A stretch of 64,000 nucleotides of DNA. Origin: a virus (lineage: Duplodnaviria; Caudoviricetes). Position numbers and translations under genes: made by a program. The notes below the pieces were generated by a model. That model ran no database searches. It was not told the DNA's origin and saw nothing but the letters and a program-made list of their open reading frames with translations. Shown here piece by piece: positions 823 to 63,229 of the stretch (position 1 is the first letter of the stretch; every line of letters begins with the position of its first letter). Where the stretch lies: the IMG/VR virus record IMGVR_UViG_3300028833_000066; one strand, 5' to 3'.

Positions 823-1728
823 GTGATGTGTATGATGGATCAATATTTTGGCGTAAAAGAACTTTATGAAGTTGTATTGCGTGCGAAAACACCTATGAAA
901 TTTGGCGAACGTAATATTGAAGCAGACGAACCAGTATTATATTTTGAAAATGTAACTATGTCTGTTTTAAACGAAGATAGCCGACCCATTATGGCTCGCG
1001 GCGGTTGGTCTAACTTGCCGCATGTTATATGGGAAGATAGAAATGATGTAACTTTTTAGTTACAAGAAGGTATACTTTCTAATTTAAGTATGGGTATACT
1101 TTTTAATGCTAAAGTATGCTAGCCAGAAGAAAATTAGAAATTATATGTTAATAAAAGAGAAGGGCCATTAGAAGTAGAATATCATCCGCAAACTTTAGAA
1201 GAAATTGAAAATGATATTCAGCCGCAAGCCTTTATTAGATTAGAAAAATTACCAATTTTGTATCCTGAGAAAAAAGCTTTTATTTTTGACTGGGATAGAA
1301 ATATGCCGCAAAGAAAATTATATGGTCAATTATAGCAAGAACAAGATAGTCTTGGTAATTATATAGTTGATTTATATGAAGATAAAGAACATAATCATCC
1401 GGCACAACAAGCCAAACAATGTTTAGTGGATTACTACTATGAATATGAGAATGACGCACTGATCTATTTAATATAGAAAGAGCGTTTTAATGGATTATTC
1501 ACTCTTGAGGGTAAATTTTACTCCAAGGATGAAAACGAAGGCAAAAATTATACTAATATAATTTATATGCCAAAAGTAAGAGTTGTGAGTGATATTAACT
1601 TACGCTTGGGAGAAAGGGCTAATCCAACTATGTCCGTATTCAACATTATTGGTATGCCAGAGAATATGGGCGGGAATAAGAAAGGATTAATTTTACAAAT
1701 CACTAGATTGGATAGTGATATTGAGTAA
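823..1728 (+). CDS. Tail tube paralog / minor tail protein (TAG=Gln, 5 in-frame TAG)
   Basis: Frame is open to TAA at 1728 when TAG is read through. ARGGWSN..IWED and FNGLFTLEGKFY..MPKVRVVSDINLRLGERANPT align by eye with the upstream tube protein. Start could be 823, 826, 832 or 835. Confidence 0.7.
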
Positions 1729-1729
1729 T

Positions 1730-1767
1730 GCCGTTTCCTAAGCAATTAGGAAACGGCTCTTTTTTTA
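1730..1767 (+). terminator. Intrinsic terminator
   Basis: GCCGTTTCCTAA-GCAA-TTAGGAAACGGC followed by a T run. Confidence 0.85.
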
Positions 1768-1794
1768 TTTGGCGATAAAGGAGAGGTGAAATAT

Positions 1795-4700
1795 ATGGCG
1801 AATAATAGTTAGACTGGCGTGGTCATTGATGTTACTGCACGGATAAAAGGATATGAGGCTGATTTAAATAAGTTTAAAGCGGCAGTATAGAAAGTAGATC
1901 CTGGCAGTTCAATGGGTAAATCATTAATCAAAATGATTGATGATTATGAACGCCGCATTAATGCTATTGGGAAAAATGTATAGCCAAGATTTTTTTCAGA
2001 TAAGTAGATAGATAACTTTTTTGAAAAATTAGAAAATGTTGATAAATTAGCTGTTAATATTGGTAATAATTTAGCTAATATAAAAGTAGGAGATTTAAAT
2101 TTCTCTACAATGGAGGGCAATATATAGACAGTTATTAAGTCTATATAGGAAGCAAATGCTTAGTTAGATTTATTATCAAAAACAAATTTATAGAATATTC
2201 TTAAAGATGCTCCAGAACTCGCGGATACATTAAGTAAATTAGGTATTAATATTGATACTGCTAATTTTAAAGATGTTGAACGTATATTAACAAATGGTAT
2301 GGCTAAAGCTACTGCTTAGGCTGATGAATATAAAAATAAGATTGCAGAAGCAGAAAGTACTTTAGAGCATCTTGGAAAATAGCAAGAAGAAAGATAGAAA
2401 AATGCTCCTGATTTTCTAATAGATGATAAAGCTTATACAAAACAATTAGAAAAAATTTCGTCTATTAAAATGCCAGAAAATGTTTTTAATCCAGAAAGAG
2501 CTAAAGAGTTAATTAATTAGTTTAATAATAATTTAGCTGTGGCTTTAAAAAATTCTAGTAAAGATGGACATGTAAATGAAGCATTAAAGAGTACAGTTGA
2601 AAATTTATAGAAATAGATTACTGAAGCTTTTTCTGAAAAAAACTTTAATCCTGAGTAGTTTAGAGAAAGATTTCAACAAATTTTTGATGTTATTAGAAAT
2701 ACTAAAGGTCTAACTAAGTCTGGCGTCTTAGGAGAAGGATTTAATAGAAATACTTCTATTCGTTAGATATTAGAATAGTTTTTTGATACAAATGCTATAA
2801 ATGATGCTAAAGAAAAAGCAATGAATTTAGCAACAGAATTAAGCTAGTATTTATCTCCTGAAATGTTTATGCAAATTGGAGAGAAAATTGAGAATGGCGA
2901 TTTTGGTAAAATTGGAGAAATTATTGCTAAAGGATTAAAAGCAGCACGAGAAGCATTTGAAAAAGAAGGAAAACAAATAGAAACAAGTAAGCAAAAGACA
3001 GAACAAACACTTATTGAAAGTAAGAAAAAATTAGAAGTAGTAGAGAGTAAAAGAGCTGGCATAACCACTGCAAGCTAGCAATATGCAAGTGTTATGGAAA
3101 GTTTTCGTAACTAGATTAAATAGTTACAAGATAGAATTGCTGCTTTGGAAAAAGAACGTGATGAATAGGCTAAAGGAACGCATGACGAGGTAACTTCTGC
3201 TGGAGCTAGTGGACTTGAGCATGCTCAAGATAATTTTTAGACTGCATCTTCTGCAGCAGAAAATTATCACAAAGAATTAAATAAAATTGCTTCTGCTGAA
3301 TAGGCTTTAGGAAGCTTATAGAGTCTTTTAACTCGTTGGTTTAGTCTTTATGGCGCCATTAGAATGGTTCGTCAAGCAATTAAATCAATGGTTGCAGATA
3401 TTACTTAGTTAGATCATACAATTAATCAAATTTCTATTGTTACTAATATGAGTATGGATGAACTATGGAATTAGATTCCATAGTATACTGCAATGGCTAA
3501 ATAGTATGGTGTAGCAATTTCTGGTGTATATGAAGTTTCACAATTGTATTATCAATAGGGTTTATAGACAGTAGAAGTAACTGGACTAACGGCAGAAACA
3601 TTAAAATTAGCTAAAATTTCTGGATTAGATTATAGTACTGCTACTAACTATATGACAAATGCAGTGCGTTCATTTAAGATGGAATTAAGTGATGCAAATG
3701 TAGTTACCGATGCTTATGCAGCATTGGCGGCGGCATCTGCTTCTAGCGTAGAAGAATTAGCAACTGCTATGAGTAAAACAGCATCTTCAGCACAGGCTGT
3801 AGGTTCTACAATGCAAGAAACTGCGGCTATGATGGCTGTTATGATTGAAGCTACTCGTGAAGCTCCTGAGAATATTGGTTCTGCTATGAAGTCAATCATT
3901 TCTCGTTATGGTGAAATGAAAGCTGATCCAACGGCAATGGTCGATTCTGAAGGACAAGAAATGAGTTTGAATAAGGTTGATAAAGCCTTATAGTCTGTTG
4001 GTATTTCATTACAAGATGAACAAGGACAATTTAGATCATTCACTGAAGTTATTAATGAATTAGCCGGTGTATGGGATACTTTAAGTAATAATACACAACG
4101 TTATATTGCTACTGTTATGGCTGGTAATAGATAGCAGTCTCGTTTCTTAGCATTAGTTAGTAGCGGCGAGCGTCTATAGCAATTAACTGAAATAGCAAAT
4201 GATTCAGAAGGAACTGGACAATTATAGACTTTAAAAACATTAGATAGTATTGAAAGTAAGGCATAGCAAGCTAAAACAGCTATGCAAGAAATTTATAATT
4301 CTTAGGGATTGCAGGATATAATTAAAGGTTGGTATGATTTTGAAGCGGCTATAGGTAAATTTTATGCACGTATGAGCCAAGTTAGTAGTTTTAATTTTGC
4401 TGCGAATATTATATTGCAATTTACTTCAATTGCAACTGCTCTGTCTTCAATTTATAGAGTTATAAGAGCAGTTGTAATAAATCATTCTAGATAGGCATAG
4501 GTATAGATGACCACTGACGCTTTAGCAGAGGCTGAAAAACGAAAGGCTGGTGCAACTGATGAAGCAAATTAGAATATAGCAGAGGCATAGCGTGCTGCTA
4601 CAGGATATGGATAGGCATAGCGATAGAAAAGTACTAGCTTTTTTCTTGTGAAAGGTAGCAGTGCTGATGGAAGAAAGCTTAAAACAGGTTGGGGCTGGGG

Positions 4701-7700
4701 AAATTCTAAAGGCGCAGCAATTACAAGAACAGTAGGTGCTCTTGCAGGAGCTGGATTATCAATTGCAGGCACCGCTGTTAGTGCAAACGCGGCGAAAATG
4801 AGTGAAGATTCATAGGATGAACGAAATAAAAAAGCTTCATCAATTAGAACTGGTAGTACTTTAAGTGGAATAGGCACAGGACTTTCTATGGGCTCAGCAT
4901 TCGGTCCTTATGGGATGGCAGCTGGTGCTATTATCGGTGGATTAGTTGGATTTGCGACTTCTATAAGTAATTCTGCAGAAACTATTTTTGAAAGTACTGT
5001 CGAACGTTTAAATAAATTAAAGACAAAATATGAAGAAGCCAATAATAAAGCATTAGAGTCTAAAAGTGAATTAAATGATTTAAAGAAATTAAAATAGTCA
5101 TATGATGATTTGAAAAAGAGTCGTAATACTAATAATGAATCAATGTTAAAATATCAGGAATTATGTAATCAAATTGCATAGACACATTCCGAATTAGTTG
5201 AAGGATATACTTCTGAAGGTAATGCAATAATAAATATGACTACTGCTTATGATACATTATATGAATCTAAGCGTAGAATGTATTTATTAGATGAAAAAGA
5301 AGCTCTCGCCGCAGAATTAGCATTTACTACTGATCCTGGTAGTGTAGCTGAATCTATGAATATTAAAAAAATAGAAGCTCCTGCTTGGAGTGGATCTCTT
5401 TTAGATAGTGCAGAAAGCGATCGTAAATATGTATTAGGATAGGCGTATGAGTCTTTAATAAGAGGGATCGGAGAGGGATATACTGGTTCAGAATTAGCAA
5501 AAATAATGATAGGAAGCACTGCTCATGCATTAAAAGACGCCGTAGGACTAAAGCCAAATGAAGAAATTAATACATAGTATGCTTAGATTTTATTTGGGCA
5601 GGATATGGCGAATGAAATGTTTATTAGAGATGCTAACAATAAGGTAGTCGTTAATGATCAAGCAGCTTGGGAAGCGACAGAATTATTAGCAAAAGAAATT
5701 TAGACTTATGGAATTGAAGTAACTGCAGAAAATATAAAAGCACGAGCTAAAGACAGCAAAATATTTAATTGGGATGCATATTGGGTTGATGAAGATTTTC
5801 TTAGCAATTTTTTTGGTGCATATAATTCAAAATTAGATTCTTAGGAAATTGTTGAAAAACGCACTAATAATTAGATTGAAACTTATATCCGCGATGTTTA
5901 CGCTGATAATGACGAATATTCTGGTATTGAATTATCTATTTATTCAGAACTGTTAAAAAAACAAGCAAAAGATAAAATTGAAAATGAAAATATTGATCCT
6001 TCTATATTATTTAAGTAGATAGCAGATGGAATTTATTATGATACAGATGTATATGGTATCAGTTCTGTATTAGCAGATAGTGCAATTAAAACATTATCTA
6101 AGTCTAAAAAAGCTAATTTAACCGAATTGTGGAATAGTATTTCACAATATAATGAAGAAGAATATCAAATTATTTTAGATACATTAGGGATAGAAGATCA
6201 AGAATTATTGAATCTTATTCAAGAGCATCGTCAAAATATTATTAAGGATATTTATACGCGTTTTAAAGATGCTATGTCAGAAAATGCAATTTTAAATAAA
6301 GACTAGATTAATATTTGGAAAGACGGTTTTACTCCTGAATAGCTTAATAATATTACAGCTGAATATACTGATTTAGAAAATAATGCAGCATTGTCAGCTA
6401 AGGATAAAGTAGATTATTTGAATGCTTGGAATACTTTATATGATAATTTTATAAATACTAATTTTGCTTCAAGTAAATAGAAAGAATAGATTGCTAATAT
6501 TTTAACTTCAACTGATAAAACAAGTTTTTCTGATATTACTAATGCAATCGAAGAACTTTAGAAAATAGGTGCTCCTGAAGCTTTACCAATAATTTAGGAT
6601 TTATCATATATACAAAGTCATTTAAATATTAATATTCCATCAGAAGTAAACACTTATTTTTCTACTTTAAGTGAAAAAATTAAAACATTAGAAAGTACTT
6701 TAAAGACAGCCTTAGATGGTATGAATTTAAATGAAATATTGTCTTAGGCATAGCAATTAGATATAGATTTTACAAATGATAATATTGAGTTTAAAGATGG
6801 TAAATACTATTTTAAAGATTATAATATTGTATTAAAGAGTATTCAAGACTCTATATATAAAGATATTGATTTTATTTTTAAAGGTGCTGATAAGGCTTTA
6901 GAATTATTAAAAAGTAATGGTAATGGATTATTATCACTTAATAGTGATTTTATGTATAATGGCTTTAATTTACAAGAAACGATTAAACATTATGCACCAG
7001 AAATAAGTGAAGGTAATAGTTGGAAAGATATTTTAGGAGCATAGAATGAAGAACTTGGTTAGTCATTAGATTATCTTTAGAATTTTTATGATAATATTAA
7101 AGATAAAAGTGATATTGGATCTTTTTATACCTGGATTAATGATTCTGAAAAAATGTGGAATAGCATTTTTTCTAATGTTGATATAGATGCATAGACTGAT
7201 GCAGTTGCCGCGATGTTTGGTTTACCTAATAAAGATGAGGCGACACAATTACGCGATGATTTAAATACTTTATATGTTGAATATACTAATGCTAAAACAA
7301 AAGAAGGTTTTAATGATTAGGGATTTATTGAATATGCCAAAATAGCATTAGCAAGTTATTCTGAATAGTGGGATTGGATTTAGAATGAAATAGATAAATA
7401 TACTGCGGGAATGTTTATTACTGCAAATAAGTTAGAAGAATGGTGGGATAATAATACATTCTTAAAAGATATAGAAATGGGAGATACCAGAGCCGGTATT
7501 CTAAAAGCTTTACGTTTAGGAGATTTCCAAAGAGTAAAAGAGATGTTAGAAAGTTCTGGTGATGAAGAAATTTATGAAGAATTACTTAAATATGTTGACT
7601 ATTTTTATGAAAATTCTTAGAATTTACTTAAAGAATCTACTTCTCTATTCGCCGCAGCGATTACTGATGGAAAACAGAAAATAAAAATTAATGAATGGAA

Positions 7701-10700
7701 TCGTGATATTTTAACTGGTTTTGCAAAAACTTTGTCAGGAGAAGATATTACAGAAGCAACCGCTGAAGCATATTTAGATTTAACAGAAGCTAGTGAAGAA
7801 GAGCTACAAAAATTTTTAGAAAGAGTACAGTCTTCTAATTTAAAAGGAAAAGAACGTATAGATACTATTGTAGCAGTTTAGAAAGCTATTAGTGAAAGAA
7901 GTCTTGCCAATGTTTTAAATAATGTTGTGGATAATTATGAATCTTTAACTTATGAAGTTGTTGTTTCTTTAGCAAAAGGTTTTAATACCACTATTGAAGC
8001 TTTAGAAGAAGCGGGGAATATTACTTATGATATTGCTCTTGGCACTTATAAAGTTAATGCTGAATGGTTACGTAGTTAGATTACTAATAAAGATCCATTA
8101 AAATACTAGAAGCAATTAGCTAAATTAGATGAACATACTCAAGAATTGTCATTAACTAATATAGTTGGAGATATAATAAAAAATTATTAGTCAATTACCG
8201 CAGAAATAATGGCAAGGTTAGGAGAATAGACTGGACAGAACTATGAAGCATTAGCAGAAACTTTTAATATTGAAAAAAATGATGACGGTACATTTAAAGC
8301 TTCATTAAAAGAATTACAAAATTTAATTAAATTTAGTTATGATGCTATAAGAAAAGAAGTACCTCTATCTATTTAGAAAAAATTAAATGAACTTTATGAT
8401 AATATTATTTCAGAAGTTACTAATCTTCCAGGATCTTTTACTAATGGTTTTACTAAAACAACTGATATGTAGAGATATGTAGATATGCTTAATGATAGTG
8501 GCTTATTTAATACGGTTTTTACCATGTTTGGTGAAAATGGAATATTTAAATGGTCAGAAAGTTTAAATGCTTATATATATTCTACTACTGGTTTATTAGC
8601 ATAGGTTAGCTATTTTTATGAAAATTTGAAAAATATGTCTGAAGATCAAAAAATTGCGGCTTAGTAGCTATTATAGAATAGTGTAAAAACCTTTGCTGAA
8701 AATGTAGATATTATTGAATATTTATCTTCGGATAGAACTGAATTAGATTGGGAAAAGTTAAATACTGCTTATGATAGTTATATAGAATATATTGGAGCTT
8801 TAAATACAGCAATTAATGATTAGATTAATGATTTAAAAGATGAAATAACGAATGTTGATTATTATGCTAAAGTTGAAAATAAACGTATTAATGTCGCAGA
8901 TAATTTACAAAAAATACAACAATTAGAGTCACAATTAATTAATATTCCTAATTATACAGCTGAATAGTTAAAAACGTTAATAGAAGATGGTAATACAGCG
9001 GCAGTATTATTAGTTTCAAATTTATATAAAACTGCGGGTAAAAATTTATCTCTTGCTGACATGAAAGCGGTTTATCGTTCCGGCATAACTCATCTTACTG
9101 AATCAGTTTCTGAATAGCTTACTGCTACTGTTAATGATTTAGTTGATGAATAGACTTATAATATATTAAAAAATATTGAAGGATATTCATTTGATAAGAC
9201 TTTAGCCGATGAGGGCATTTATCTTATTACTTAGATGGGCAAGGTCGCCGATGCGTATAAGGCATATTATGAAAAATTAATTAATTCTGGAGAAGCTACA
9301 TTAAAAGAAATTAATGAAGCTGCTGTTAAAGTTTTAGAAAATAGTGATCAATGGGGTCGTGGAGAACAGGCTGCGATTGATATACTATCTAAAGCTACTG
9401 GCATTACTTATTAGGAACTTGCTGAATTCTTTACATCTATAGGATGGGAATTTAGTGAAGCTACTATGGAGACTCTTAAAGAAGCGGGTATATTGAAAGC
9501 TATAGGTGGCAATAAAATTGCTATTACTAATTGGAAAGAGTTTGCAAAAATAGCTGGATATGATTTTGGATCATCTGAATATGTTGCTGGATTGAGTGCT
9601 TATAATGATGCTTTAATTTAGATGAATGAAGCGACTAAAAATGCTGTTGATAATGAACTTAAAAATTTAATAGAAATTAAACCTGGAAAATAGTTAAATT
9701 TAACATATCTTTTAAGTAATATTATTAATGAAGAAAAAATAAAAAATGATTTATATGAACGGTATTCATCTTTTAGCGAAGAAGCAATTGAAGCTATGGC
9801 TGATAATACTAAAAATAAAGCTTTTAAGTTATTAGAAGAAGAATTATTAAAATATGGAGCATATTTACAAGACGGTATATTAAATATTACCGACAATGCT
9901 AATATTTATGGTATAATTTAGACTATTACTATCACTGCTTAGCAATATGAAAGTATTTTGCCAGAACAGTTAGCTGAATTGCAAGATGCATTAGTATCTA
10001 TTTTAAGCAATTATACAGATTTAATTAAAAAAGGTATTTCTGGTAGTTTATCTAATGTAGATAAATTAAATTTAGCCGAGTTTGCTAAATCTTTTGGTTT
10101 TAAAGGTACATTATAGTTTATGCCTACTTCTGAAGGGGCATAGCTAACTGAACAATCATTATATTAGATTTATAAAACAGTACAAAATGTAAATGCTTTA
10201 GCGGCAAAAACTATATTTGATGAATGGGCTAAGAATATTTAGAGTGCTAATAGTGAAATGAAAACTATGGCTGGCGTATTGCAAAAAATACGTGAACTAG
10301 AAAATAGTAAAGTTGAAGCTATAAAAGAACAAGCGGAATTATATAAAGAAATGGCTCGCTATATGCAATTAAATTAGCCTGAATCATATAAAATGTTTGA
10401 GTCGGGTAATGCATATAGTGGAGTACAAGGATTTACTAATTTTATTAGTTAGTTTGGGCCTCTTAATAAAACTTTAAATGAGGCTGGCAAAAATGGATAC
10501 ATGGAATGGACCGATTTTGAAACTTGGGCTCGTGGTATGACCGAGATGGCAAAATCAGTAGGACATGATATAGTATCTTGTGGTATTACATTTGATGAAG
10601 CTGGATAGACATATGCTGATTTAATGGAAAAGGCTTCAATTTCATTTACTGAAGATGGAAAAACAATTGTTGATATTTCTGCTAATAGTGGAATTCAATT

Positions 10701-13700
10701 TGATGTTTCTGCTGCATTAGCTCAATATGGGGATAATGAAGCTGCTATTAAAGAATATGCCTAGAAACAAGTGGATATGCTTGATTCTATTATTGCTGTT
10801 TTAGAAGTTATGGCATAGATGGAAAAACTTGCTGATTTAGATGTTAATGGTAATGAAACTTTAGATTTAAGTGAAGTCTTTAAGGTGAAAGGCGATGTAG
10901 CCACTGATGAGTATAATGAAGATATTCAAAAACTTATGCAAGGAACTCAAGAGGCTGCTGAAAAAGATAAAGAATTAAAAAAAGGTTTAGAAGAATTTTA
11001 GATTGGTAAAACTAATTTATTTGAAATAATTAAAAGTATTGCTGATGGCGGTGAATGGACTGAATTACAGAACCTTCTTGGAAAAGATATAACATAGAAG
11101 GAAGCATTAGCTATTATAGATTGGTTAAGTAAGTCATCATCATTAAATTGGGAAGACCCAATGTCAGCTCTATAGCAACTTTTACAATTATATGCAGATA
11201 ATCAAATAGAAGGATTAGCAGTTAAATTAAATGTTGATGGAATTACATATGTTGTGGATAGTAATGGTATTGCTACTGTAGATATGGATTCTGTAGAAGA
11301 AGCTGCACGTCTTACTGATAAAGAAGTAGATGAAATTTTAAGTGCTCTTACTAAAACTTAGGAAGAAGTTTCTAAAGATCCTATTCAATATACATATTGG
11401 TTACATGAAAAGAAATTAATTGATTTAAAAGATGATGGCACATATGCCATTATGATTAATGGTCAATAGGTTGCTGAATGGAATCCTAAAACAGGCAAGG
11501 AGCCTGATAGTGATTTTATTAGAGCTTAGGCCGCGGTCGGTTTATTAACTAATTTTACTAAAAATAAAACAACAGATGAAATTTAGATTGATGGTAAAGA
11601 TTATTATGTTAATGCTGAAGTTGGAACTAACAATTGGCAATATCAAGTTAGATTAGATAAAGATAATAATATTGAATATACTTCTGGAAATTTAACTGCA
11701 TCATCATTAGATGAACTTTTATAGAAAAAATGGGAACAAGGATGGTCTTTAAGTAAGACTCCTACAGCTAAATCGTTCAAATTTGATCGTGCATGGCAAT
11801 AGGAATTAGGTATAGATGAATTATATAGTGTAGAATTAAATCAATCTAATGTTAATGCGGCAAGTAATAATTTAAGAGAACAATTATATAAATTGTGGAT
11901 AGACGGTTCTGACAAAGCTTTATAGAGTGCTAAAGACAAATTAAAAAAATATGATTTTACAATTTCAGATGATTTTAATTTTAATGATCTTGCAGTTGCT
12001 TTAAATTTCTCTATGGAAAATAAGGAAATTTCTGTTTCATATAAAGATAATGAAGAAACTGCAGAAAAATTAACAATTGTAAAGTTATAGTAGCCTGATG
12101 GCGGAATGGTTGAGGTAGGATATAATGAAGAAGGCAAACCATTGACACTTACTTTATATTAGAATGGAACAGAAGATCCAACCATTGGAGTAAGATATAA
12201 TGAAGATGGTTAGAGTTTAATTATTCAAGATTATCCAAATGGATAGGAGCATAGTATTCCTATTAATTATGGACCAGACGCTGAAAATCCTCCATCAAAT
12301 CTTTTAGAAGTTTTATAGTATTTAAATTCTACCGACCCTAATAAAGGAGATTTAGGAATAAACCTTAATGGGTTATCACCAGAGGTTTTGGCTGCATTAT
12401 CTTATCTAGAAGCAATTTTATCTGGTGATACTAGTAAAACAATAGATGTATCAGCTACTGTTGTTCCTTCTGTTGATGGATTAATTACAGCATTATAGGA
12501 ATTAACTATTGCAATTAATAAAAACACTCCTCCTACTACTATTAATAATAATAGTAGTAATAATAATGCTGATAATACCAATACTGAATTAGAAGATGAA
12601 ATCCCGCTTACTATAGATTTTGATACAATTAATGAAGTTGTTGATCTTGATGATTAGGAAACTCAAGATGCAATTACCGAGGCAGAACGTTAGGCTGCGG
12701 AAGTAGAGCTTAAAAATAAACAAATAGCATTTGAAAAGGAATAGGCATTAAAGAAAAAGTATTAGGAAGTTGTAGATAAAGGTATATTATCATCAGAAAA
12801 TGATGATTTATTAGACTTAATTTAGGATACTGGCGGTAATGTTGGTGAATACGCATAGAACATTTTAAATGAAAAAGATATTATATATAATGGAGTCACA
12901 TGGACTAAATATAATGGTCAATGGATGACTAAAAAATAGGCTCAGGAATTCAAAAATAAAGAGAACACTGATACAAGAAATACTATCGAAGAAAATTAGT
13001 CAACTGTAGAAGATTTACAGGAAGAGCCAAATAATATTAATAAGTTTCCAATTCTATCTTTAGATTTAACTAAAGTTGGTTTAACTGGTCCTATAGGATT
13101 TGAAATGAATAATTCTATCAATAAAATCGCACAAGATGAGGGTTTAGATCCTAATTCTGTAGAAGCTAGAAAAAAATTAGCTGAAAAGATTTTAAAAATA
13201 GATGATTTAAGTAAAATTGATTTAATTCCAGACTCAACCGAAAACGAAAAGGGCACCCAAGTTCCTTATGGTAATCATTTAGAAGATAAATATATAGGTC
13301 ATATGGCCACTTATGATGCTTATACTTTAGCTTAGTATGCTGCTGGTAGAAATTTAAATTATAGTGATGTATTACATACATTATTAACTCAAACTGGATA
13401 TAATTCAGAAGGTATTGGTCTTAATGATGAAATTTTTGAGCCAGAATTAGAATCATGGGATGCTATTTTTAGTAGATGGCTTTTAAAAAATGATGATATT
13501 GATATTAAAGAATAGGCTCAAGAATTTAAAGCTGGTAATTATGCTCCCGATGTTGCTCGGGATATGGTACGACAGTGGTTTGCATCATTAGATACGAATA
13601 CATTGTCTTTTATGAATACGGACCGTACAGTAGAATTTTTTGAAGCTTTAACTGAAGCATTCCCTGATGAGCAGTGGTTTAGTGATACATTAACAGATTT

Positions 13701-16653
13701 AAAATTAATGCAGTCAGCAACTGAAGTTAATATTACTCCATAGAAAGAAGATTTAGATAGTAATATATCTAGTATTACTGAAGTTAAGGATGCTTTATCA
13801 CAATTAGCTGCGGCAAAGACTCCAGAAAGTTAGTTGACAGCATTAATGAATTTACAATCTGCAATTCAAGAATTGTCTCTTGAAAATATAGAAGAAGTAC
13901 CTAAAGTAATTAATACTGCTTTAGCTAATATAGATCCATCCGTCGCGATCTAGGCTCTTGAAAAATTAAATAAAAAATTTATTTCTATTCCTTCAGTTAA
14001 AAATACAACAGTGTATGTTAGATTTGAATCAGCTTCTGAAAATGCAGAAGTAACTGGTAATAGTCAATTAACAATGAGTATGGCTAAAGGTAATGCTTTA
14101 GCTGCGGGTCAAGGAACTCTTATGGGCGAACTTGGTCCAGAAATGGTTGTATCTGGCGGCCGGTATTTCATAGCAGGTCAAAATGGTGCTGAATTTGTTA
14201 ATCTTGATCCTGATGCTATTGTATTTAATCATTTACAAACTCAACGTTTATTAAATAGCGGTCGTGGTGGCCGCGGAGTTCCAATTACTAATGAACGAAA
14301 AGCTACCTCATTTGCTAAAGGTAATGTTTCTGGTCCAGCATTAGCAAGTCCTTCTAATGCTTTATCTACTCTTAAAGCATTACGTAATATGTGGAAGAAC
14401 TTAGCAGAAAATGGATTGTCAGAACTTGCACAGCAAGCTGGAGGTGGCGGAGGCGGCGGCGATAAAAATAATGCCGGCTATATCGCTGATCTTGAACGTT
14501 GGTACACATTACTTCGTTAGATAAGTACTCTTGAAAAAGAAATTACACATCAAGAAACTTTACGTAAAAAATTGGAAGCCGACCGCATCATTGATGGTAG
14601 AGCTTATTATAATAGTCAAAAAGAATCTATTAAATTATTGGAAGATGAAATATCTAAAAAGCATGAGTTAGTAAATCTTCAAAAGAGTTATTATGATGCT
14701 CGTCGTCAAGACTTAAAAGATTCTGAATATTCATAGTTCTTTACTTTTGATGAAAAAGGAACTATGATTTATAACGATGAAGCTATTTTAGGTAAGGGAA
14801 CTAAATATGAATCAGCTGGCGGCTTACGTGGTCTTGCTAAACTTAATGCTCAAAATGCTGATAAATCACCTGTATATACGGCAAAAGAATAGTATGAAAT
14901 GCTAAAAGCTTGGGGCTTTGCCGCAGACTTAAAATATGATTCTTCTGGTAAAGAAATTGATATGTCAAAGGATGAAGGATACGCTAGTGCTGTTCAAGCA
15001 TTCTGGGATAAAGTTGATGGATGGAAGGAAGAATTGGATGATTTGTATGACGGTTTCCAAGATTATTAGAAAGACATACTTGATTTAGAGATTTAGTATA
15101 ATGAACTCTTACAATAGATGGTAGATAATTAGATTTCTCTAGAAAATCGTATAGAAAAAGCTATTGAAGATGCTCGTTAGCGTGAAATTGATAATGCTAA
15201 AGATGAAAAAGATGTTATCCAAGAATCTGCTGAAAAATTCCTTGATGGGTTGAATGATTCACTTGATAAAGAACGTAAAATGTATGAAACTAGTTAGGGT
15301 GATAATGAGCTTAATAGAATGCGTCGTTAGTTAGCAATATTACAGCGTTCTGGCGGTTCTGCTTCATAGATTCGTTCATTACAACAAGATATTGCCGCAC
15401 GAGAATAGGATAGTTATTTTGAAGCTCAATAGAATCAAATTGATGCTATTCAAGCTGCTTCTGATGCTGAAATGGAACGTTTAGATCATTAGATTTCTAT
15501 AATGGAAGAATAGTTAGCTTATGAAAAAGAACATGGTTTATTATGGAATCAAGTTTATGAAGTAATGGCTATGACTCCGGAAGAAATTGAAAACTTTATA
15601 TTAGTAAATTCTAAAGATTTTGAAAGTAAATCAACACTTTAGATAGCGGAAGATTTAAGAACCGTAAAGTCTGAAATTGAACAATGGGTGTCTCGTAGAG
15701 ATGACAGCGAAGATGTTGTTGGAAATGAACCATAGCATAACTGGAATACTTATTATGAAGCAGCTTCTAATCTTTATCATTTAGATGAAGAGAAAGATGC
15801 GGGAATAATTAGTGAAGCTAAATAGGCTTATGAAGCTAAATATGCTGAAACTGGTGATGAAAATTATGCGGCGAGAGCGGCTGATGAAGTATTTGAAAAA
15901 TATAGAGGCCCAAGACCTGGAACATAGGCATTTGATAGTACAGCAAATCCTGCAACATCAAATAATCAATCTGGTGGTAGTAATGGTGCAGGAGTTGGTA
16001 CAAAGGCTACTGGTAATTTAAAAGTACATTATAGATATGGAAATACAGAAATTGCGAGAGTCGATACCTATACTAAATTGCCAGCTGGACAAAAAGTATA
16101 TGGCAGTAATTATGTTAAAAATATTTCTGGTTATGTCTATTCTAAAACTGAAAACGATGGTGCAAAAATTATTGCTGGAAAAACAACTCATTTATTCTTA
16201 ATATATAATAAACCTGTAATTATAACTAATGAATAGCCTAAACAAGAGACAAAAGCTGAATATCTATTAAGAACAAAACAGATAGTAGCTGGTTATTCGT
16301 CTGGCGGTCTTGCTAATTACACTGGTCTCGCAATGGTTCACGGATCAAAGCAAGATCCTGAAGCATTCTTAAATGCTGAAGAAACTCATATGTGGCGTGA
16401 TAAGATACTTAGCGGCAATAGCGGTTCTCTCACTTCAATGCTACTTGATTTCTAGAATATGGTTTCTGGAATGGTTAATTCTGAAAGCTATTCTAGCATT
16501 GGCACTGGTGAAGGAATTAATATTGAAAACGCAGTAGTAAATATGAATGCTACAATATCCAATGACTACGATGCTCGTCGTGCGGCGGACAACGTAATGG
16601 ATGAAATGGTGCGTATTGCACGCAAAACAACCGCACAACAAGCAAGGAGGTAA
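1795..16653 (+). CDS. Giant tape measure protein, ~4,952 aa (TAG=Gln)
   Basis: SD GGAGAGGTG precedes ATG 1795. Track fragments at 2863, 3652, 4309, 4888, 5236, 7411, 10819, 13105, 14011 and 16459 are all in this frame; the segments I spot-checked are interrupted only by TAG. TMP core around 3300-4300 (LYYQ*GL, AG.R*QSRFLAL). TMP-type motifs GELGPEMVV (~14130) and GYSSGGLANYTGLAMVHG (~16290). Confidence 0.88.
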
Positions 16654-41747: not shown

Positions 41748-41781
41748 AAATCATCACACTCCTCTTAAAGTATAGTTAGGA

Positions 41782-42672: not shown

Positions 42673-42720
42673 AAACTTTTACCTCTTTCTTTTTAATGTG
42701 TATTTTTTCTTTACAATTTT

Positions 42721-42786: not shown

Positions 42787-42798
42787 TTTATTTCAAAA

Positions 42799-43245: not shown

Positions 43246-43274
43246 ATTATATCAAAATTTTTTATTTTTGTCAA
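43246..43274 (-). promoter_or_regulatory. Sigma-A promoter
   Basis: TTGACA-N17-TATAAT with extended TG. Confidence 0.75.
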
Positions 43275-47064: not shown

Positions 47065-47092
47065 GGCTTATCATCCTCCTTTTTATATATTT

Positions 47093-47121
47093 ATTATATC
47101 ATAAAATTTAATTATTGTCAA
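47093..47121 (-). promoter_or_regulatory. Sigma-A promoter for gyrA
   Basis: TTGACA-N17-TATAAT with extended TG. Confidence 0.75.
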
Positions 47122-47961
47122 TTATTCGTTTAGCCATTGAATATAATATGAGACGAAATCCGCTTTTCCAAAACCAGGTGTAGAAGTATTTCTTGCTGCC
47201 AATCCTTCAAAATCAGCTTCAAGCATAAATCTATCTGCTTGTTCACATAAAGGTTCAACAAAGAAAAATTGTATATTATTTTTCATTTGTTCTTTTACTA
47301 TACTATATTCTTTATCTTTTAAAAATAAATGATGATAATCTTTATATCCTTGTCGATATAAAGCATATTTCCAATTTTCATCTACATATTTCATGGCTTC
47401 AGGCGTAGCATTATACTACCAAATATTAAAATCTTTATGTTTAATGGGTGGTGCTTTTAAAATACGTAAATTATTTGAAATATTTTCTCTTGTCCAAATT
47501 TGAAATACACATCGTACAGAAAAATCTTTACCATTATCTGTAAAACTATTTTCGGGTAAATACATATATGCTTGTAAATTAAAGTTAGAATCTAATTCTT
47601 TATGTACACCCCATTTCATAAATGATACTGGGACTATAAAAGCAATAATTTTACTATATTTTGCTGCATGATTAAAAAATTCAATAGCTAATTTTGATCG
47701 TTTCCCAAAAGGTGGATTGCCAATAGTAATATAATCATTACGAGGTAATTCTAATGTTAAAAAGTCTGCCTACTTAATATTGTCTCCTTCTGGTTTAATA
47801 TCAAAAGCATCATATTTTATCAAAAAGGGCAAAAAATTTCCAGAACCAGCGGAAGGCTCCAAAAAATATTCTTTATCTATTTCTGGATAATATTGTTTGA
47901 GAAAATTATAACATTGATATGCGATAGTTGGCTTTGTGTAAAATTTGTCTAAATTCACCAT
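47122..47961 (-). CDS. Amino (N6-adenine type) DNA methyltransferase, 279 aa (2 TAG)
   Basis: DKFYTK, FLEPSAGSGNF (motif I), K*ADFL, IGNPPFG (motif IV), AFIVP. Joins three track ORFs into one frame. Confidence 0.85.
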
Positions 47962-47973
47962 ATAAAATCACCT

Positions 47974-48807
47974 TTATTTTATAAAACCACGAATAGTAGG
48001 ATTGTTTAATCCGCCACAATTCTGCCATCCAATAGAAATTCTAATCTTTCCTGCGTACATACCTAATTTTTGTCTCTTAGTCATTGATACTTTTCCGTCA
48101 CCATAAAGATTCATTAAATCTTGTTTTGTATAAACATCCTGAATTGTACTTTTGCCATAACAAAAAACAATTAATTTATCAGGAATTTGTTTATTACAAA
48201 TACCTTTAGTAACAGTATCCATAACAAATTGTTTTTCAATTTGAGGATTATTTTTTAAATATTCAAAAAAATCTTTAGTGAATTTCATTCGTACTTTTGC
48301 TTCAAGCTTACTATAATCTTTATACCATTTGGCATCATTACTGTTAATAGATTTAGCTATTTTTTGACTGACTGGCGATTCATTTTCATAACTAACTTTA
48401 TCTCCTAAATGTTCTACTAAAATGTCATATAAATGATATTCAATCATATACTCTTTATGTGTTTTAGCAAATCCATACCTATCTCTAGTATTAAATAAAG
48501 TTGTATTGAACCAAGTCCCTTTTCCGCTACTTTCTATATATTTTACTTCAATAATTTCATTATTAATAATAAGGTCGCCATCAGCGTTATTAGTTTTATT
48601 ACCAATCCAAGTAATAGTAATAATTTCACCATAACGCTTTTCATATTGTTCAATAAAGATAGCCGCATTTGTTAAAATTTGACGCCAATCCAGATCGGTA
48701 ATATGTTCTGGATAAGGATTATCCTTTGGTAAATGTTTTTTAACCATTACGATCGCCTGTTCAAATCCCTTACCATACCACTGATTATCTGTTTTTTTAT
48801 TAGCCAT
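47974..48807 (-). CDS. Putative PD-(D/E)xK restriction-type endonuclease
   Basis: GKGFEQ...ADGDLIINNEIIEVKY candidate catalytic motif; directly upstream of the MTase. No TAG. Confidence 0.55.
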   Translation of the reverse strand: MANKKTDNQWYGKGFEQAIVMVKKHLPKDNPYPEHITDLDWRQILTNAAIFIEQYEKRYGEIITITWIGNKTNNADGDLIINNEIIEVKYIESSGKGTWFNTTLFNTRDRYGFAKTHKEYMIEYHLYDILVEHLGDKVSYENESPVSQKIAKSINSNDAKWYKDYSKLEAKVRMKFTKDFFEYLKNNPQIEKQFVMDTVTKGICNKQIPDKLIVFCYGKSTIQDVYTKQDLMNLYGDGKVSMTKRQKLGMYAGKIRISIGWQNCGGLNNPTIRGFIK

Positions 48808-48862
48808 AAATTTTATCCTTTCATATCACCTATTTATAATACTAAAATCAATATAATTATTG

Positions 48863-49042
48863 TCAATATTTATGTATAAACCAAATAATTATACCAATAC
48901 TAATTACAAGAGAAATCCATATAGGTGAAAGCACCCAAAGCCATGACCATTCTATAACATGGCAGAGCTTCAATACAATAAAAACTATTGTAAGTAGGCC
49001 AGTAAAACCAATGCCGCCACTAGTAGAATTATTTTTATTCAT
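48863..49042 (-). CDS. Small membrane protein, absent from the ORF track
   Basis: GGIGFTGLLTIVFIVLKLCHVIEWSWLWVLSPIWI, a pattern common in phage membrane proteins; SD AAGGAGAG. Confidence 0.75.
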   Translation of the reverse strand: MNKNNSTSGGIGFTGLLTIVFIVLKLCHVIEWSWLWVLSPIWISLVISIGIIIWFIHKY

Positions 49043-49067
49043 CTTATTTCTCTCCTTTTATAAAAAT

Positions 49068-49096
49068 ATTATATTATAAATTTTGAAATAAGTCAA
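49068..49096 (-). promoter_or_regulatory. Sigma-A promoter
   Basis: TTGACT-N17-TATAAT. Confidence 0.65.
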
Positions 49097-49431
49097 TTGT
49101 TATTAAAAATTTTTTTCATAAAATCATTACAAATTAATATACAATAATTATCTAAATTAATATTATCTAACATTTCAATTAACTTAGTATTCTCTTCTTC
49201 TGTTTTATTAGTTAATATTAATAAATGTTTATTTTCTTTAAATCTTATAGTAAACCAATATTCTATGGCCCGACTTAGCTCTTCTAATGAAGTGGTTTGT
49301 GGAATCATTAATGAATTAATAAATATTTCATCACTATAATTGACTTTTATAAATGAAGGATATTTTTCACAAATAGTGTTAGCTATTACCCAGCCATGTG
49401 GTTCTGTAATTTTTAAAATTATAAGTTTCAT
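49093..49431 (-). CDS. Hypothetical protein
   Basis: ORF track; follows gyrB. Confidence 0.55.
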   Translation of the reverse strand: MKLIILKITEPHGWVIANTICEKYPSFIKVNYSDEIFINSLMIPQTTSLEELSRAIEYWFTIRFKENKHLLILTNKTEEENTKLIEMLDNINLDNYCILICNDFMKKIFNNN

Positions 49432-49435
49432 AATT

Positions 49436-51295
49436 TTACCTATTTATAACACTAAAGTCCACATTATCAAACAAGAACTGTCTTCTTCCTTCAACTTCTG
49501 GGCCCATAAGCATTTGAATACTTTTAGCCGCGAGTTCAACATCGTAAATTGAAAGAATTTCAAGACGCCGTTCAGTTGGATGAAGCATTGAATGTTCCAT
49601 ATCATCCGCGGAGAGTTCTCCCAAGCCCTTTGCGCGCGTGATCTCCCAACTCTCTCGTCCCTGCCTTATTTTCGCAAGCTCTTCATCATTATAAGCAAAT
49701 AGTTTATTATTACCCTTCTCAATCTTATAAAGAGGAGCTCGAAGCCAACAAAGTCTATTTTCAAGAATAAATTTTGGCATAAGGACATAGAACATTGTAG
49801 AGATCAGGCACATAATAGAATAGCCATCAACATCACCATCAGTTGCGATAGCTACTTTTCCATAATTAAGCTTTCGGCTATTGTACTTATCTTGAATACC
49901 ACAGCCAAGCGCCATAATGATGTCACTGATTTCTTGGTTCTCAAGACATTCATCAAGTGGATGTTTTAGAAGATTCTTTACTTTACCGCGCACGGCATAG
50001 AGTGCTTCCTTATTAACATCGCGCGCGGGCATTAAGCCGCCAAGTGCTGAATTACCCTCGCAGATAATTAGCATTGAGTCTTGGCCGTGCTTTTCGCAAT
50101 CTTTAAACTTATCAGAAGAAGTAATCTTTTGTTTCTTCTGCTCAGTTTCTTTCTTCTCAAGATTAAGAACCGCATTACGTGCGCGTTCTGCTGCGGCTTC
50201 TGCTTTCTCTACCTTTTTCAGCATTTCTACAATAGTAGTAAATTCTGAAGGATATTTTACATACATATCCTTTAGAGCGTTAGTGAAAGCAGTAGTTGCA
50301 AGAGTACGAAGTGATGAGTTGTTAATTTTAGTCTTGGTTTGGTTAGCAAATGAAGGATTTTCTACTTTACAATTAATTACGTAAAATAAATTATTACGAA
50401 TATATTCACCATCAAAATCTTGACCAGATAGTGAATTAAATGTCTTTGTAATAGCACTACGTGCGCCGGTTACTGGAGTTCCAAGTTCTGGACAACGAAG
50501 ACCATTTACAAAAACATATGGCATTTCACGACGGCTGCCCCATTGAAAAGCAATTTCTACTTGGTCAGTACCATCGGTTGCTGAACTGGTGATAATATGC
50601 TTTTGAAGAGGCTTCGTTACTTGTTCAGCTACGAAGTCTACAATACCATTTTTAGCACAATATGTCTTTGTATCATTTCCATTAGAAACTACAAATTCAA
50701 TTCCTGGATATAGATAAGAAATATCCTGAATATCACGGCAAATACGACTATAAGAATAACCAATAGGTCCGTTAGAAAATACTTCCGGGTCTGGAATAAA
50801 TTCAATAAAAGTTCCGGTAGTTTTTACCGTAGTGCGAACTTCTTTATAATCTTTAAGGTCTCCCTTTTGAAAATAGGCAATCGCGCACTTTCCGTCACGA
50901 TAGCTTTTTACAGTAAATTCTGCGGCTGAAAGGCATACGCAGCTACCTCCGATGCCATTAAGACCCGAAGCATTTTTGTAAGCATCGTGAGAAAACTTGC
51001 CGCCAGTATGAGATTGAGTATAAATAGAAACAAGTACATTCTCACCATTTTCACGGATACCAAACGGGCAGCCGCGGCCATAGTCACGAACTGCTACTCT
51101 ATTCATGCTCTCATCAAGAGTAATTTCAATTTTCTTACCGTATCCGGCGAGAGCTTCATCAGTACTATTGTTGATGATTTCTTTAAGGGCCTGATACGTG
51201 CCTTCAATATCATCTGATCCCAAATACATCTGAATACGCTGTCTTACCCCTTCTTTAAAAGTAAGACTTTCAATTGAATTAATATCATAAGCCAC
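49436..51295 (-). CDS. gyrB: Type IIA topoisomerase subunit B (GyrB/ParE-like)
   Basis: EIINNSTDE, DYGRG, HTGGKF, GLNGIG, CEGNSA, VRGKVKN, TDGDVDG, KGLGE. No TAG. Confidence 0.93.
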   Translation of the reverse strand: MAYDINSIESLTFKEGVRQRIQMYLGSDDIEGTYQALKEIINNSTDEALAGYGKKIEITLDESMNRVAVRDYGRGCPFGIRENGENVLVSIYTQSHTGGKFSHDAYKNASGLNGIGGSCVCLSAAEFTVKSYRDGKCAIAYFQKGDLKDYKEVRTTVKTTGTFIEFIPDPEVFSNGPIGYSYSRICRDIQDISYLYPGIEFVVSNGNDTKTYCAKNGIVDFVAEQVTKPLQKHIITSSATDGTDQVEIAFQWGSRREMPYVFVNGLRCPELGTPVTGARSAITKTFNSLSGQDFDGEYIRNNLFYVINCKVENPSFANQTKTKINNSSLRTLATTAFTNALKDMYVKYPSEFTTIVEMLKKVEKAEAAAERARNAVLNLEKKETEQKKQKITSSDKFKDCEKHGQDSMLIICEGNSALGGLMPARDVNKEALYAVRGKVKNLLKHPLDECLENQEISDIIMALGCGIQDKYNSRKLNYGKVAIATDGDVDGYSIMCLISTMFYVLMPKFILENRLCWLRAPLYKIEKGNNKLFAYNDEELAKIRQGRESWEITRAKGLGELSADDMEHSMLHPTERRLEILSIYDVELAAKSIQMLMGPEVEGRRQFLFDNVDFSVINR

Positions 51296-59149: not shown

Positions 59150-60391
59150 TTATCTTGGAGGAATTATTTTATCACAGAGTTGTGGAATTGGTCCACGTTC
59201 TGACTTTAGTAATTTAACAGTGCCAAATAATGGATCACCTACTAAATTATCAAGCATAGCTTTAATGCCATTATTTTTTTCAAATTTAGGGTTATCAATC
59301 TATGCTACATCCCCACAAAATATAATTTCGCCGCCATCTTCTACGCGGCTAAGTAATAATGTAACTAATTTATCATTTAAGTTTTCACATTCATCACAAA
59401 AGATAATACCTTTTATAGAACGTCCTCTGATATGAGAAATAGGGAATATTTCAATAACACCTTCATCAATAAGCTGGTCAAGCATCATTTGACCGCCTAA
59501 ATGATCGGCAATTACTCCTCCCCACAAACTCATTTTTTGCCGCACATCACCTGGCACAAAACCAATATCTTTAGTGTCTGCAACTATAATATTATTACGA
59601 ATAAAAGTAATTTTAGGCTGGCGGCCGCGAGCTACTTGTTCTAGTGCATAATTTAGAGCTAATAATGTTTTTCCACTGCCCCAGGCAGAAGTTAATAATT
59701 TAACCTTGATATCCTAGTCTTGAAGTAAGTGCATAGCCATTTTTTGCTCTAAATTACGAGGTTTAATTACTTCACCAGTATATATATTTTTAATATCTTT
59801 ATAATTTAAAGGTTTATATTCATGTCCATCCCAGAATAATACATCTTTTAATTCATCACCTGTAAATATTTCAGCGAATGAATTAGTGGGACATTTTAAT
59901 GTATTCATTGTTGGGCACTGATATAATTGGGCCATCTGTGAATTATTAGGATAATATTTACCCCAGCCGCAATACTCTATCTATTCAATACGGCTTTCTT
60001 CTTTGTCATCTAAATATATTGCCTATAATTCCTTAATCTATTTAGCAATTAAAAACTAAGCGCCATCAGCAGTTATAAAAAATACATCATTTGAATGATT
60101 TTTTAATGCGGCAGCTTCAGCAATTAGCCAGTGGTCATGAATATCCTATAGTATTGGATATTTTCTAAATTTTTTTCTAGTATGATTATTAGCGGTAATA
60201 AAATGTATATCTCTAGATGTAATAATATCTCGCACAGCCTATCGTGCGAGATATTTTGTTTTATCATCTTTTTGCTATGAAGTTTTTATATTTTCAAGTT
60301 CCATTAATACAATAGGACTAATATATATATTCTGGAATCTTTTATAAGCCCCATTGAGTACTGCAGAAGTATCTAAAAAATTAATATTCAT
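59150..60391 (-). CDS. phoH: PIN-PhoH protein, 413 aa (9 TAG)
   Basis: N-terminal PIN domain (FLDTSAV, MELENIK, DHWLI, FITAD). PhoH motifs SAWGSGKT, IGFVPG, IRGRSI, DECENL, LLSRV, GDVA*ID. TAATG-coupled to clpP. Confidence 0.88.
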
Positions 60392-62166: not shown

Positions 62167-62167
62167 A

Positions 62168-62722
62168 TTATTCTCCTATTTTTTCTAAAAACTCAATTGC
62201 AGAAGTCTTCATACCTTCAAAAGCTCCTACATTATCAACATACCAGTCAAGACAATAATCATCTAAATCAACTTCCGATGGATGATTACGTTGTTCTTCA
62301 GTTAAAAGAGGATTTTCCCATATATCGCCTTCATCAGTATAGCGACGAATACCTACGGATACGCATTTATTTTTATTAAACTTCTTAACTCTTTTTAATT
62401 CATTTAAGAAGCGAAGGTCAGGAATAAGCGCATAATCCCAATCATTCTCTGTGGCTTTAATGAACTGTGCCACCAAATCAGCCCAATAATTTTTAAACAC
62501 AGAGCGCACTTCATTTGTACCCATTTGTTGAAGTAGCTGGCGGCCGCTAATATCCTTTTCGCCATTCCATTTATAATATAACTTGGCATATTCTTTAACC
62601 ATATCTGCAAAATGAATTACTAATACTCGTTCATTACGATTTTCTAATTCATCTTTTAAAAATTTAGCAAAAGTATCTTTGCCAGAGCCACTTTTACCGC
62701 TAATTAGAATTATCTTCTTCAT
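62168..62722 (-). CDS. Deoxynucleoside monophosphate kinase-like protein
   Basis: ISGKSGSGKDT, FADMVK, RQLLQQMGT, IPDLRFLNE, HPSE. Confidence 0.8.
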   Translation of the reverse strand: MKKIILISGKSGSGKDTFAKFLKDELENRNERVLVIHFADMVKEYAKLYYKWNGEKDISGRQLLQQMGTNEVRSVFKNYWADLVAQFIKATENDWDYALIPDLRFLNELKRVKKFNKNKCVSVGIRRYTDEGDIWENPLLTEEQRNHPSEVDLDDYCLDWYVDNVGAFEGMKTSAIEFLEKIGE

Positions 62723-62912
62723 TCTTCATTTCCTCCAATTTAAGCTGTACATAAAAATCTACAAACTCCTATACAGCAGGAGTACAATTTGCTCTATATT
62801 CCTCAATGAATTTAATTGTTTTTGGTACATCGTGGAAATTAAAAGCTCTATTCACCGCAAGTTTTGTTATTTCTTTTTCTGATTCTGTTAAATTAGTGAA
62901 TAATTCAGTCAT
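62694..62912 (-). CDS. Hypothetical protein (2 TAG), absent from the ORF track
   Basis: ATGA-coupled start, MTELFTNL..., running to TAA 62694. Confidence 0.55.
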
Positions 62913-63229
62913 TTTTTTTTACCTATTACCTTTTGTAAAATATCAAAAAATGCTTGAACTTCTTCTTTAGTTTCAAGAACAATTTTTTGAACCGGTTTTG
63001 CCGCACATCTATCTTCATTCGCTGGCATATTATAGACATAATATTCATAAATACCATCTGAATTTAAATATTGTTCAGCAAGTAACGTATCATCACGATT
63101 AGCATAAATTTTGAGACTTGCGGTTTCATCGTCATTTTCAATATGCTCTGTGTGCATATTTTGCGGGATAAGCTATTTGACAAAGCCTACATACTCATCC
63201 CGGGTTACACTATATAATTCTTCTCTCAT
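62909..63229 (-). CDS. Hypothetical protein (1 TAG at codon 19)
   Basis: SD GAGG then MREELYSVTRDEYVGFVK*LIP, in frame with the track ORF. Confidence 0.6.

Follow-up and report, generated by a model that had tools for sequence, protein, structure and literature searches.

Reassignment of the stop codon TAG to Gln (genetic code 15) is known from gut phages of the crAss-like, Lak, and "gemstone" clades (Borges et al., bioRxiv 2021.08.26.457843; Yutin et al., PMC7886860). Recoding of late genes has been published for such phages in the same 2 studies, the Gln reading has been proven by proteomics (Peters et al., PMC9523058), and a suppressor tRNA was found in only 40% of TAG-recoded genomes (bioRxiv 2021.08.26.457843). 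A related system is phAss-1 of the proposed Phassvirus (PMC10607447; OQ749652.1). Group I introns in the anticodon loop are described from bacterial tRNA-Leu(UAA), tRNA-fMet, and tRNA-Ile, and in a 2014 review of these introns the phage examples are confined to protein genes (PMC3984707). We analyzed a stretch of 64,000 nt (the window) of the Caudoviricetes record IMGVR_UViG_3300028833_000066, corresponding to G000:C1:115433-179432 (-) in a virus genome of 179,585 nt (G000) whose ends share an overlap of ~127 nt and which is thus a whole circle. The recoding in this phage is of the known kind; what appears to be new is a suppressor tRNA(CUA) gene split by an intron and, on the mature tRNA, a second anticodon arm of Gln type that recurs in ~25 related phage tRNAs. 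A sequence-only reading of the window had proposed genome-wide TAG-to-Gln recoding and noted that the phenomenon was already established in gut phages, which the published peptides confirm.

Under code 11, open reading frames (ORFs) of at least 100 amino acids span 0.52 of the window; the share is 0.92 when TAG is read through, far above the 0.56 and 0.66 obtained by reading through TGA and TAA, so that the gain is specific to TAG. Over the whole genome, the coverage rises from 0.50 to 0.84 with TAG and to 0.56 with TGA; the gain exceeds the 10%, far above TGA, by which code 15 phages are recognized. The codon-model gene call yielded 56 genes in the window and 183 in the genome. TAG was identified in 20 of the 56 window genes (codons: 242 TAG, 438 CAA, and 174 CAG), all of which are broken in an annotation under code 11, and every one of the 36 TAG-free window genes terminates in TAA or TGA. 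Genome-wide, 55 of 183 genes contain TAG, the 128 TAG-free genes terminate with TAA (83) or TGA (45), and the tail after the last TAG is short or weak in at most 8 of the 55 TAG-containing genes. With TAA or TGA closing every TAG-free gene and few weak tails after a last TAG, TAG is practically no longer a stop in this genome. No in-frame TAA or TGA was found inside the fused window ORFs, the largest of which has 4,952 codons with 152 TAG.

These counts bear out what the sequence-only reading had noticed: the gene ends it checked were TAA or TGA, reading through TAG fused fragments into intact genes, and about 20 genes or gene parts were hidden. The comparison of code 15 with code 11 that it suggested is the one given above (0.92 versus 0.52 in the window), and the TAG codons of its 6 quoted motifs were located within 2 nt of the places it named (44038 in the GIY-YIG gene, 59302 in PhoH, 3556 and 4132 in the tape measure, 27733 in NrdG, and 47772 in the methyltransferase). 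Its term "genome-wide" holds in that TAG has practically ceased to act as a stop, but sense TAG occurs only in the 20 window genes and the 55 genome genes. Two ORFs open only under code 15 were rejected as shadows, 41677-42696 (+), which overlies 2 TAG-free minus-strand genes, and likewise 41171-41608 (-); the real genes at this site, 40752-41747 (AAA_24) and 41782-42672, are both TAG-free and CAG-rich.

For the encoded residue, proteins with X at TAG were aligned and the partner codon was read from the DNA of the relatives at locally conserved positions, which makes the test independent of how databases translate TAG. Among 276 non-TAG partners, we identified 142 Gln, 29 Lys, 18 Glu, 15 Arg, and 7 Ser codons. 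The commonest partner codon, CAA (103), is 2 changes from TAG and stands above every single-change neighbor; Tyr, Trp, Leu, and Ser, each 1 change from TAG, are rare among the partners. TAG positions are common to relatives and exchange with CAA or CAG. Terminase columns with TAG contain Gln at 88 of 467 residues (19%) against a background of 2.2%. For the PhoH TAG at 59302, the solved structure 3b85 has Gln at the matching position, as do 120 of 120 homologues, and database homologues have Gln at 40% in the PhoH TAG columns versus 47% in the CAA columns; such database columns are partly circular, with close relatives translated there with TAG as Gln, and the DNA-partner test was relied on. 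The PhoH motif was checked individually, and the other 5 quoted motifs are covered by the pooled partner test only. The partner codons, the PhoH column, and the terminase columns support the proposed reading of TAG as Gln in this phage.

An Rfam scan of the window gave no matches and no tRNA was found there, in agreement with the sequence-only reading, which saw no suppressor tRNA in it. The full-genome search that it suggested identified a suppressor tRNA(CUA) gene 13,325 nt past the window end, at G000:C1:101722-102108 (+; L001:6137-6523). Its anticodon is broken between positions 35 and 36 by an ORF-less group I intron of 297 nt (C1:101756-102052; L001:6171-6467), which matches RF00028 over its full length (46 bits, E 1e-11), yet below the 50-bit cut-off. 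Exon 1 ends in CUCU and exon 2 begins with AAA, giving the joined loop CU-CUA-AA, and the boundaries are fixed by the relative L535, in which an intron-free gene at the same place is identical to the joined exons (91/91). The intron shows the group I features of a P3/P7 core with P7 intact, a guide GGA that pairs with exon UCU, U.G at the 5' splice site, and a terminal G. The suppressor transcript would carry an intron of the self-splicing type in its anticodon, with splicing predicted from these features.

The gene was missed by ARAGORN, which reported 25 tRNAs in the genome with CUA among none of them, and falls below the RF00005 cut-off. ARAGORN calls of "Leu(aag)" and "Gln(ctg)" at the locus are misreadings of the intron and of the second arm, and a relaxed "tRNA-Pyl" call inside a tail gene was set aside, being without Rfam support. 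A splice after U33 was rejected, as it would leave a 5-nt loop and the intron-free alleles place the junction at 35/36. Identity as tRNA-Pyl, the ARAGORN label for CUA, was rejected as well: tRNA-Pyl has a short variable loop, a 6-bp anticodon stem, and a PylRS pathway, whereas here the extra arm has 21-27 nt, the stem has 5 bp, and TAG aligns with Gln.

Another intron, of 172-173 nt, occupies the same tRNA site in G002, L525, and L526 and is 97-99% identical across unlike tRNA bodies; the 297-nt intron is closer to the tRNA-Leu intron of its own genome (77% over 2 blocks). Among 12 long-arm alleles retrieved with an intron-neutral pattern, 11 have no intron, and phages with intron-free suppressor alleles are recoded too. 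Since most alleles are intron-free and their phages recoded nonetheless, the intron looks like a tolerated mobile passenger that incidentally hides the suppressor gene. Searches with short DNA patterns taken from either end of the intron had no matches or produced long lists resembling chance. An HNH gene, possibly a helper of intron spread, lies ~85 nt past the tRNAs with the 172-173-nt intron (L525:5111-5587, L526:5088-5561), and the intron-free loci L531 and L539 have HNH nearby too. The tRNA cluster holds a second group I intron, 325 nt long, at the classic 34/35 site of tRNA-Leu(UAA) (L001:9045-9457), and this tRNA also has an intron in G001 (327 nt) and G002 (203 nt).

The mature suppressor has a 23-nt extra arm closing a 7-nt loop, CU-CUG-AA. 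The scan patterns comprised a D-arm end, a CUA loop, and a long arm and left YUG open; their matches, the spliced genes, and phAss-1 make up a set of 27 distinct well-formed long-arm CUA tRNAs. In 25 of them, the T stem is preceded by CUG or UUG at a distance of 11-12 nt, as is normal for an anticodon (11 nt in the phage's own tRNA-Gln(UUG)), and the triplet of the phAss-1 two-arm suppressor stands 10 nt before the T stem. When 21 distinct arms were aligned on the triplet, position 37' was A in 20 and position 34' only C (16) or U (5); positions 32', 33', and 38' vary, with U33' replaced by G in 5 arms and by A in 1, and the closing pairs 30':40' and 31':39' change in step. Alleles fetched by gene order instead of pattern follow the same rule (one at 10 nt with U37'), and among 54 other long tRNAs of class II, taken as a control, 1 has YUGA at that place. 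Judged by this layout, the extra arm is a full second anticodon arm plus variable loop, bearing a Gln anticodon and placed after the CUA arm, and the comparison of alleles shows that it is kept by selection.

None of 26 family members has G1:C72 at the acceptor end, 25 have G73, and the G000 suppressor has U1:A72 and G73. Of the tRNA-Gln identity marks, it bears the weak first pair (U1:A72), G73, G10, and U35; for G36, the decoding arm has A36, and G36' is present on the second arm in 25 of the 27 long-arm tRNAs. GlnRS requires U35 and G36, and its acceptor marks are a weak 1:72 pair and G73 (PMC9976931). Because U33' is not kept, the ribosome is an unlikely reader of the second arm and an enzyme fits better; a synthetase is favored, since U35 and G36 are what GlnRS binds. 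A genome scan with the D-arm pattern gave, among the matches listed, ordinary bacterial tRNAs, nearly all tRNA-Gln(CUG). A different long-arm tRNA(CUA) with G1:C72, U73, and the extra-arm loop UUCUAA, a second CUA-like loop, was identified at L431:9264-9324 (-) and L432:654-714, loci with almost no coding gain under code 15.

The use of TAG is sharply split by gene class across the clade. TAG makes up 199 of 396 Gln codons in 4 tail genes and 0 of 241 in 15 replication and metabolism genes (Fisher p 4e-53), 19 of 41 in terminase and portal, and 0 of 27 in the major capsid, the gene preceding it, and the major tail gene. The terminase contains TAG in all 14 suppressor-bearing relatives having a match, while TAG is absent from the major capsid in 15/15 relatives, from DNA polymerase in 16/16, and from the major tail gene in 13/15 (TAG in 2). 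With functions assigned by similarity and position, this distribution shows that TAG is used in low-copy virion, packaging, and nuclease genes and avoided by replication genes and the most abundant virion genes; the lack of TAG in the latter suggests that it is costly to decode. Recoded codons were found mainly in structural and late genes, the exceptions being the major capsid and the major tail, which have none, and a few nucleotide-metabolism genes, which have some.

Terminase and polymerase are 30-37% identical to those of SPbeta-, E3-, and related Bacillota siphoviruses, phAss-1 shares 32% amino-acid identity in the terminase and 40% in the capsid, and the capsid is similar to the YonB family. 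By these similarities, the phage is a large siphovirus of the SPbeta/phAss-1 lineage, and its host is probably a standard-code Bacillota, as its relatives and a permease suggest. Two NCS2 nucleobase permeases and a nucleoside deoxyribosyltransferase-like gene, all 3 without TAG, lie at 54798-58552, and permease homologues are frequent on contigs of 150-186 kb. In the close relative G004 (L106), with terminase pieces 65-85% identical, the structural region is 0.98 open under code 11, and this standard-code sister could be used for dating the recoding.

The search for GlnRS and release factor genes suggested by the sequence-only reading was run on the full genome of 179.5 kb, and neither these nor GluRS, GatB, or Pth were found; no release factor was found in 15 relatives, and a Lak-type kit of phage RF2 or synthetase is not present. 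By computation, the tape measure gene with 152 TAG would yield 1% full-length protein at 97% readthrough per codon and 10% at 98.5%; simple suppression in competition with an active RF1 falls far short of such readthrough. The findings are jointly explained, in our view with good probability, by a phage of the SPbeta/phAss-1 lineage in which TAG serves as a third Gln codon, read by its own intron-bearing two-arm tRNA(CUA) that host enzymes load with Gln. Early TAG-avoiding genes would be readable by the unchanged host, and TAG-rich genes would need the phage tRNA(CUA), whose transcript would contain the group I intron and must be spliced to form CUA. Because the phage is without synthetase, amidotransferase, and release factor, host enzymes would have to load Gln onto this tRNA, whose acceptor end bears the Gln marks (weak 1:72, G73). 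Host GlnRS or non-discriminating GluRS may read the second arm folded in place of the CUA arm, and the ribosome would read CUA. Since 152 TAG in 1 gene demand ~97-98.5% readthrough for 1-10% full-length protein, host RF1 would have to lose the competition nearly completely or be blocked by some factor not found here.

Within this explanation, the step in which the second arm supplies the anticodon signal to host GlnRS or non-discriminating GluRS through an alternative cloverleaf is tentative, at slightly under an even chance. That it would make a natural tRNA splitting its jobs, with the enzyme reading the CUG/UUG arm in one cloverleaf and the ribosome CUA in the other, is possible but held with a little less confidence; if true, a two-arm tRNA lets a phage reassign UAG without its own synthetase. 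Several points weigh against the explanation as a whole or against this step. Of 29 phage tRNAs(CUA), 28 inserted Gln in E. coli extract (bioRxiv 2025.10.30.685624), and short-armed suppressors exist, including 2 of 3 in phAss-1, so a second arm is not generally needed for Gln. The 21 distinct arms are related and do not represent 21 independent events. Further, the Bacillota host is assigned solely from relatives and 1 permease, and the replication-linked genes for NrdG, dUTPase, RuvC, and a methyltransferase hold TAG, so that the split between early and late genes is not clean.

Five other explanations were weighed. A host that reads code 15 natively or provides the suppressor, with no switch of code, would account for the near-complete readthrough required when no phage release factor or release factor inhibitor was recognized, but it is very improbable given 0 TAG among 241 Gln codons in the replication genes, a polymerase that is TAG-free across relatives, the close standard-code relative G004/L106, and the use of the recoded codon in ~90% of genes by phages adapted to recoded hosts (bioRxiv 2021.08.26.457843). 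The intron might be a timed switch whose splicing gates the change of code, as the CUA anticodon arises only after splicing and 2 distinct introns (297 nt in G000; 172-173 nt in G002, L525, and L526) occupy 1 site; this is unlikely, because an otherwise identical allele and 11 of 12 long-arm alleles are intron-free, intron-free genomes are recoded, and the short intron is 97-99% identical over different tRNA bodies, as expected for a mobile element. A long variable arm plus G73 are marks for SerRS, and both are found in the class-II-like body of the suppressor, which would fit TAG as Ser. This reading, along with that of TAG as some other residue or of the TAGs as decay or assembly errors, is already largely refuted by the partner codons (Ser 7/276), by TAG positions that are shared and swap with CAA/CAG, and by fused ORFs free of TAA and TGA, and we assign it hardly any probability.

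The remaining alternatives concern the second arm. Its job might lie outside charging, as a structural element or antideterminant or as a decoy for an anticodon nuclease or modifying enzyme of the host, with Gln loaded through U35, G73, and the weak 1:72 pair alone. This is a serious if somewhat doubtful possibility: besides the short-armed phage suppressors and the general uptake of Gln by phage suppressors in E. coli, amber tRNA-Trp and amber tRNA-Ser with altered acceptor pairs take Gln (PMC9976931), and the invariant UGA is also compatible with a turn motif. Against it, the triplet stands exactly at the 11-nt spacing of the phage's own tRNA-Gln(UUG) and varies only between the 2 Gln anticodons. 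A decoder working both ways, with the ribosome reading UAG by one arm and CAG/CAA by the other, could explain why no separate tRNA-Gln(CUG) was found in G000 and in 9 of 10 relatives with a matching CUG arm. Such a decoder is improbable, as 6 of 21 arms have G or A in place of U33', G019 and phAss-1 retain a separate tRNA-Gln(CUG), and tRNA-Gln(UUG), able to read CAG by wobble, is present in most genomes.

Along the window, the major tail protein gene, TAG-free in its entirety, spans the circular junction with its 3' part at 73..768 (+), followed by a virion structural gene with 5 TAG (835..1728, +; phrog_2729) and the tape measure gene (1795..16653, +; PF10145) with 152 TAG, 116 CAA, and 19 CAG in its 4,952 codons. 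Two tail-region genes, with functions taken from position only, lie at 16660..18294 (+; 12 TAG, relatives exist) and 18319..23865 (+; 1,848 codons, 30 TAG). The minus strand encodes a RuvC-like resolvase (24284..25030; 5 TAG), a dUTPase with 1 TAG close to its start (25030..25824), a protein with a C-terminal GIY-YIG domain and 11 TAG (26296..27291), which has a hydrophobic stretch at its start and 1 TAG-TAG pair, and the NrdG activase (27374..27850; 1 TAG, at 27733). The replication block (28150..43164, -) includes NrdD, DNA polymerase III alpha, RecJ, primase-like, DnaB, AAA ATPase, and other genes; its core genes are TAG-free, and 2 other genes (30297-31561) have 1 TAG each. Also on the minus strand are a GIY-YIG/NUMOD1 endonuclease gene with 3 TAG, the first at 44038 (43271..44092), TAG-free gyrA and gyrB (44689..51295) flanking a methyltransferase gene with 2 TAG (47122-47961), one of them the quoted-motif TAG at 47772, a PIN-PhoH gene with 9 TAG, of which 59302 falls on an invariant Gln (59150..60391), and 2 small genes with 2 and 1 TAG (62694..63229). 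Just past the window end, a gene of 671 amino acids with 22 TAG (L001:17287-19299) lies next to a small membrane-protein-like gene; it had no Pfam or PHROG match, and its position near a holin gene in L108 suggests a role in lysis.

In the tRNA cluster of G000 (C1:92245-106765), tRNA-Tyr, -Trp, -Phe, and -His were not found, and close relatives carry them. The anticodon of tRNA-Thr(UGU) at L001:5370-5558 (G000:C1:100955-101143) is broken by 117 nt that are themselves tRNA-like, with a 7-bp acceptor stem, D- and T-like arms, and a CCA end; relatives have a plain tRNA-Thr. A tRNA with a 55-nt insert in the anticodon loop, labeled Phe by ARAGORN, was identified at G001:C1:37289-37422 and G002:C1:39616-39749, with a body like the G000 tRNA-Pro at the same place. 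The cluster also holds a ROOL RNA (346 bits; L001:1379-1963), a drum RNA (890-983), and a cow-rumen-3-like RNA (9738-9861).

Compared with the described code 15 gut phages, the phage shares TAG as Gln, the enrichment in structural genes with variable use in replication genes, a suppressor tRNA, and the reliance on a host synthetase proposed there, and it resembles the Sapphire clade (154 +/- 27 kb, 26% recoded genes) in size and share of recoded genes (30%). It differs in that its suppressor is hidden by an intron and has a second anticodon arm, no RF2 is present, and the major capsid and tail genes avoid TAG. With phAss-1 it shares the siphovirus architecture, a long tape measure, a recoded terminase, tRNA-Sup-CTA, and no synthetase, and 1 of the 3 phAss-1 suppressors has the same two-arm design, annotated only as tRNA-Sup-CTA; unlike phAss-1 (136 kb, tape measure of ~3,150 amino acids), it has a genome of 180 kb, a tape measure of 4,952 amino acids, and 1 suppressor, split by an intron. 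The phage lacks the at least 80% nucleotide similarity and the synteny with phAss-1 that define Phassvirus and belongs to the wider lineage only. The phAss-1 paper (PMC10607447) does not contain the word "intron" and, in the passages covered, leaves the extra arm unremarked, a term search of a review of non-canonical tRNAs (PMC7609411) gave no description of the two-arm design, and the literature covered, with few subscription papers, gave no description of two-anticodon-arm tRNAs or of group I introns in phage suppressor tRNAs. Like the bacterial tRNA introns, the intron is small and ORF-less with U.G at the 5' splice site and a terminal G, and unlike them it lies in a phage tRNA gene, at the 35/36 site, and in a suppressor. 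Introns at 35/36 have been reported in Patescibacteria tRNAs. Hiding by the intron from ARAGORN and the Rfam cut-off bears on why 60% of TAG-recoded phages show no suppressor, and the 152-TAG tape measure puts numbers on the RF1 question, with near-complete readthrough needed and no release factor found in the clade. The suppressor resembles amber suppressors mischarged with Gln (E. coli supE; amber tRNA-Trp) in U35, G73, and the weak 1:72 pair, and acceptor mutants of amber tRNA-Ser and su+3 tRNA-Tyr are Gln-mischarged too, their long arm being tolerated. Unlike this suppressor, class II long arms have no Gln anticodon loop at anticodon spacing (control 1/54). The second arm bears on how a CUA tRNA without G36 can receive Gln from host enzymes, and if it is a handle for the synthetase, it would constitute a new tRNA design, useful for code expansion.

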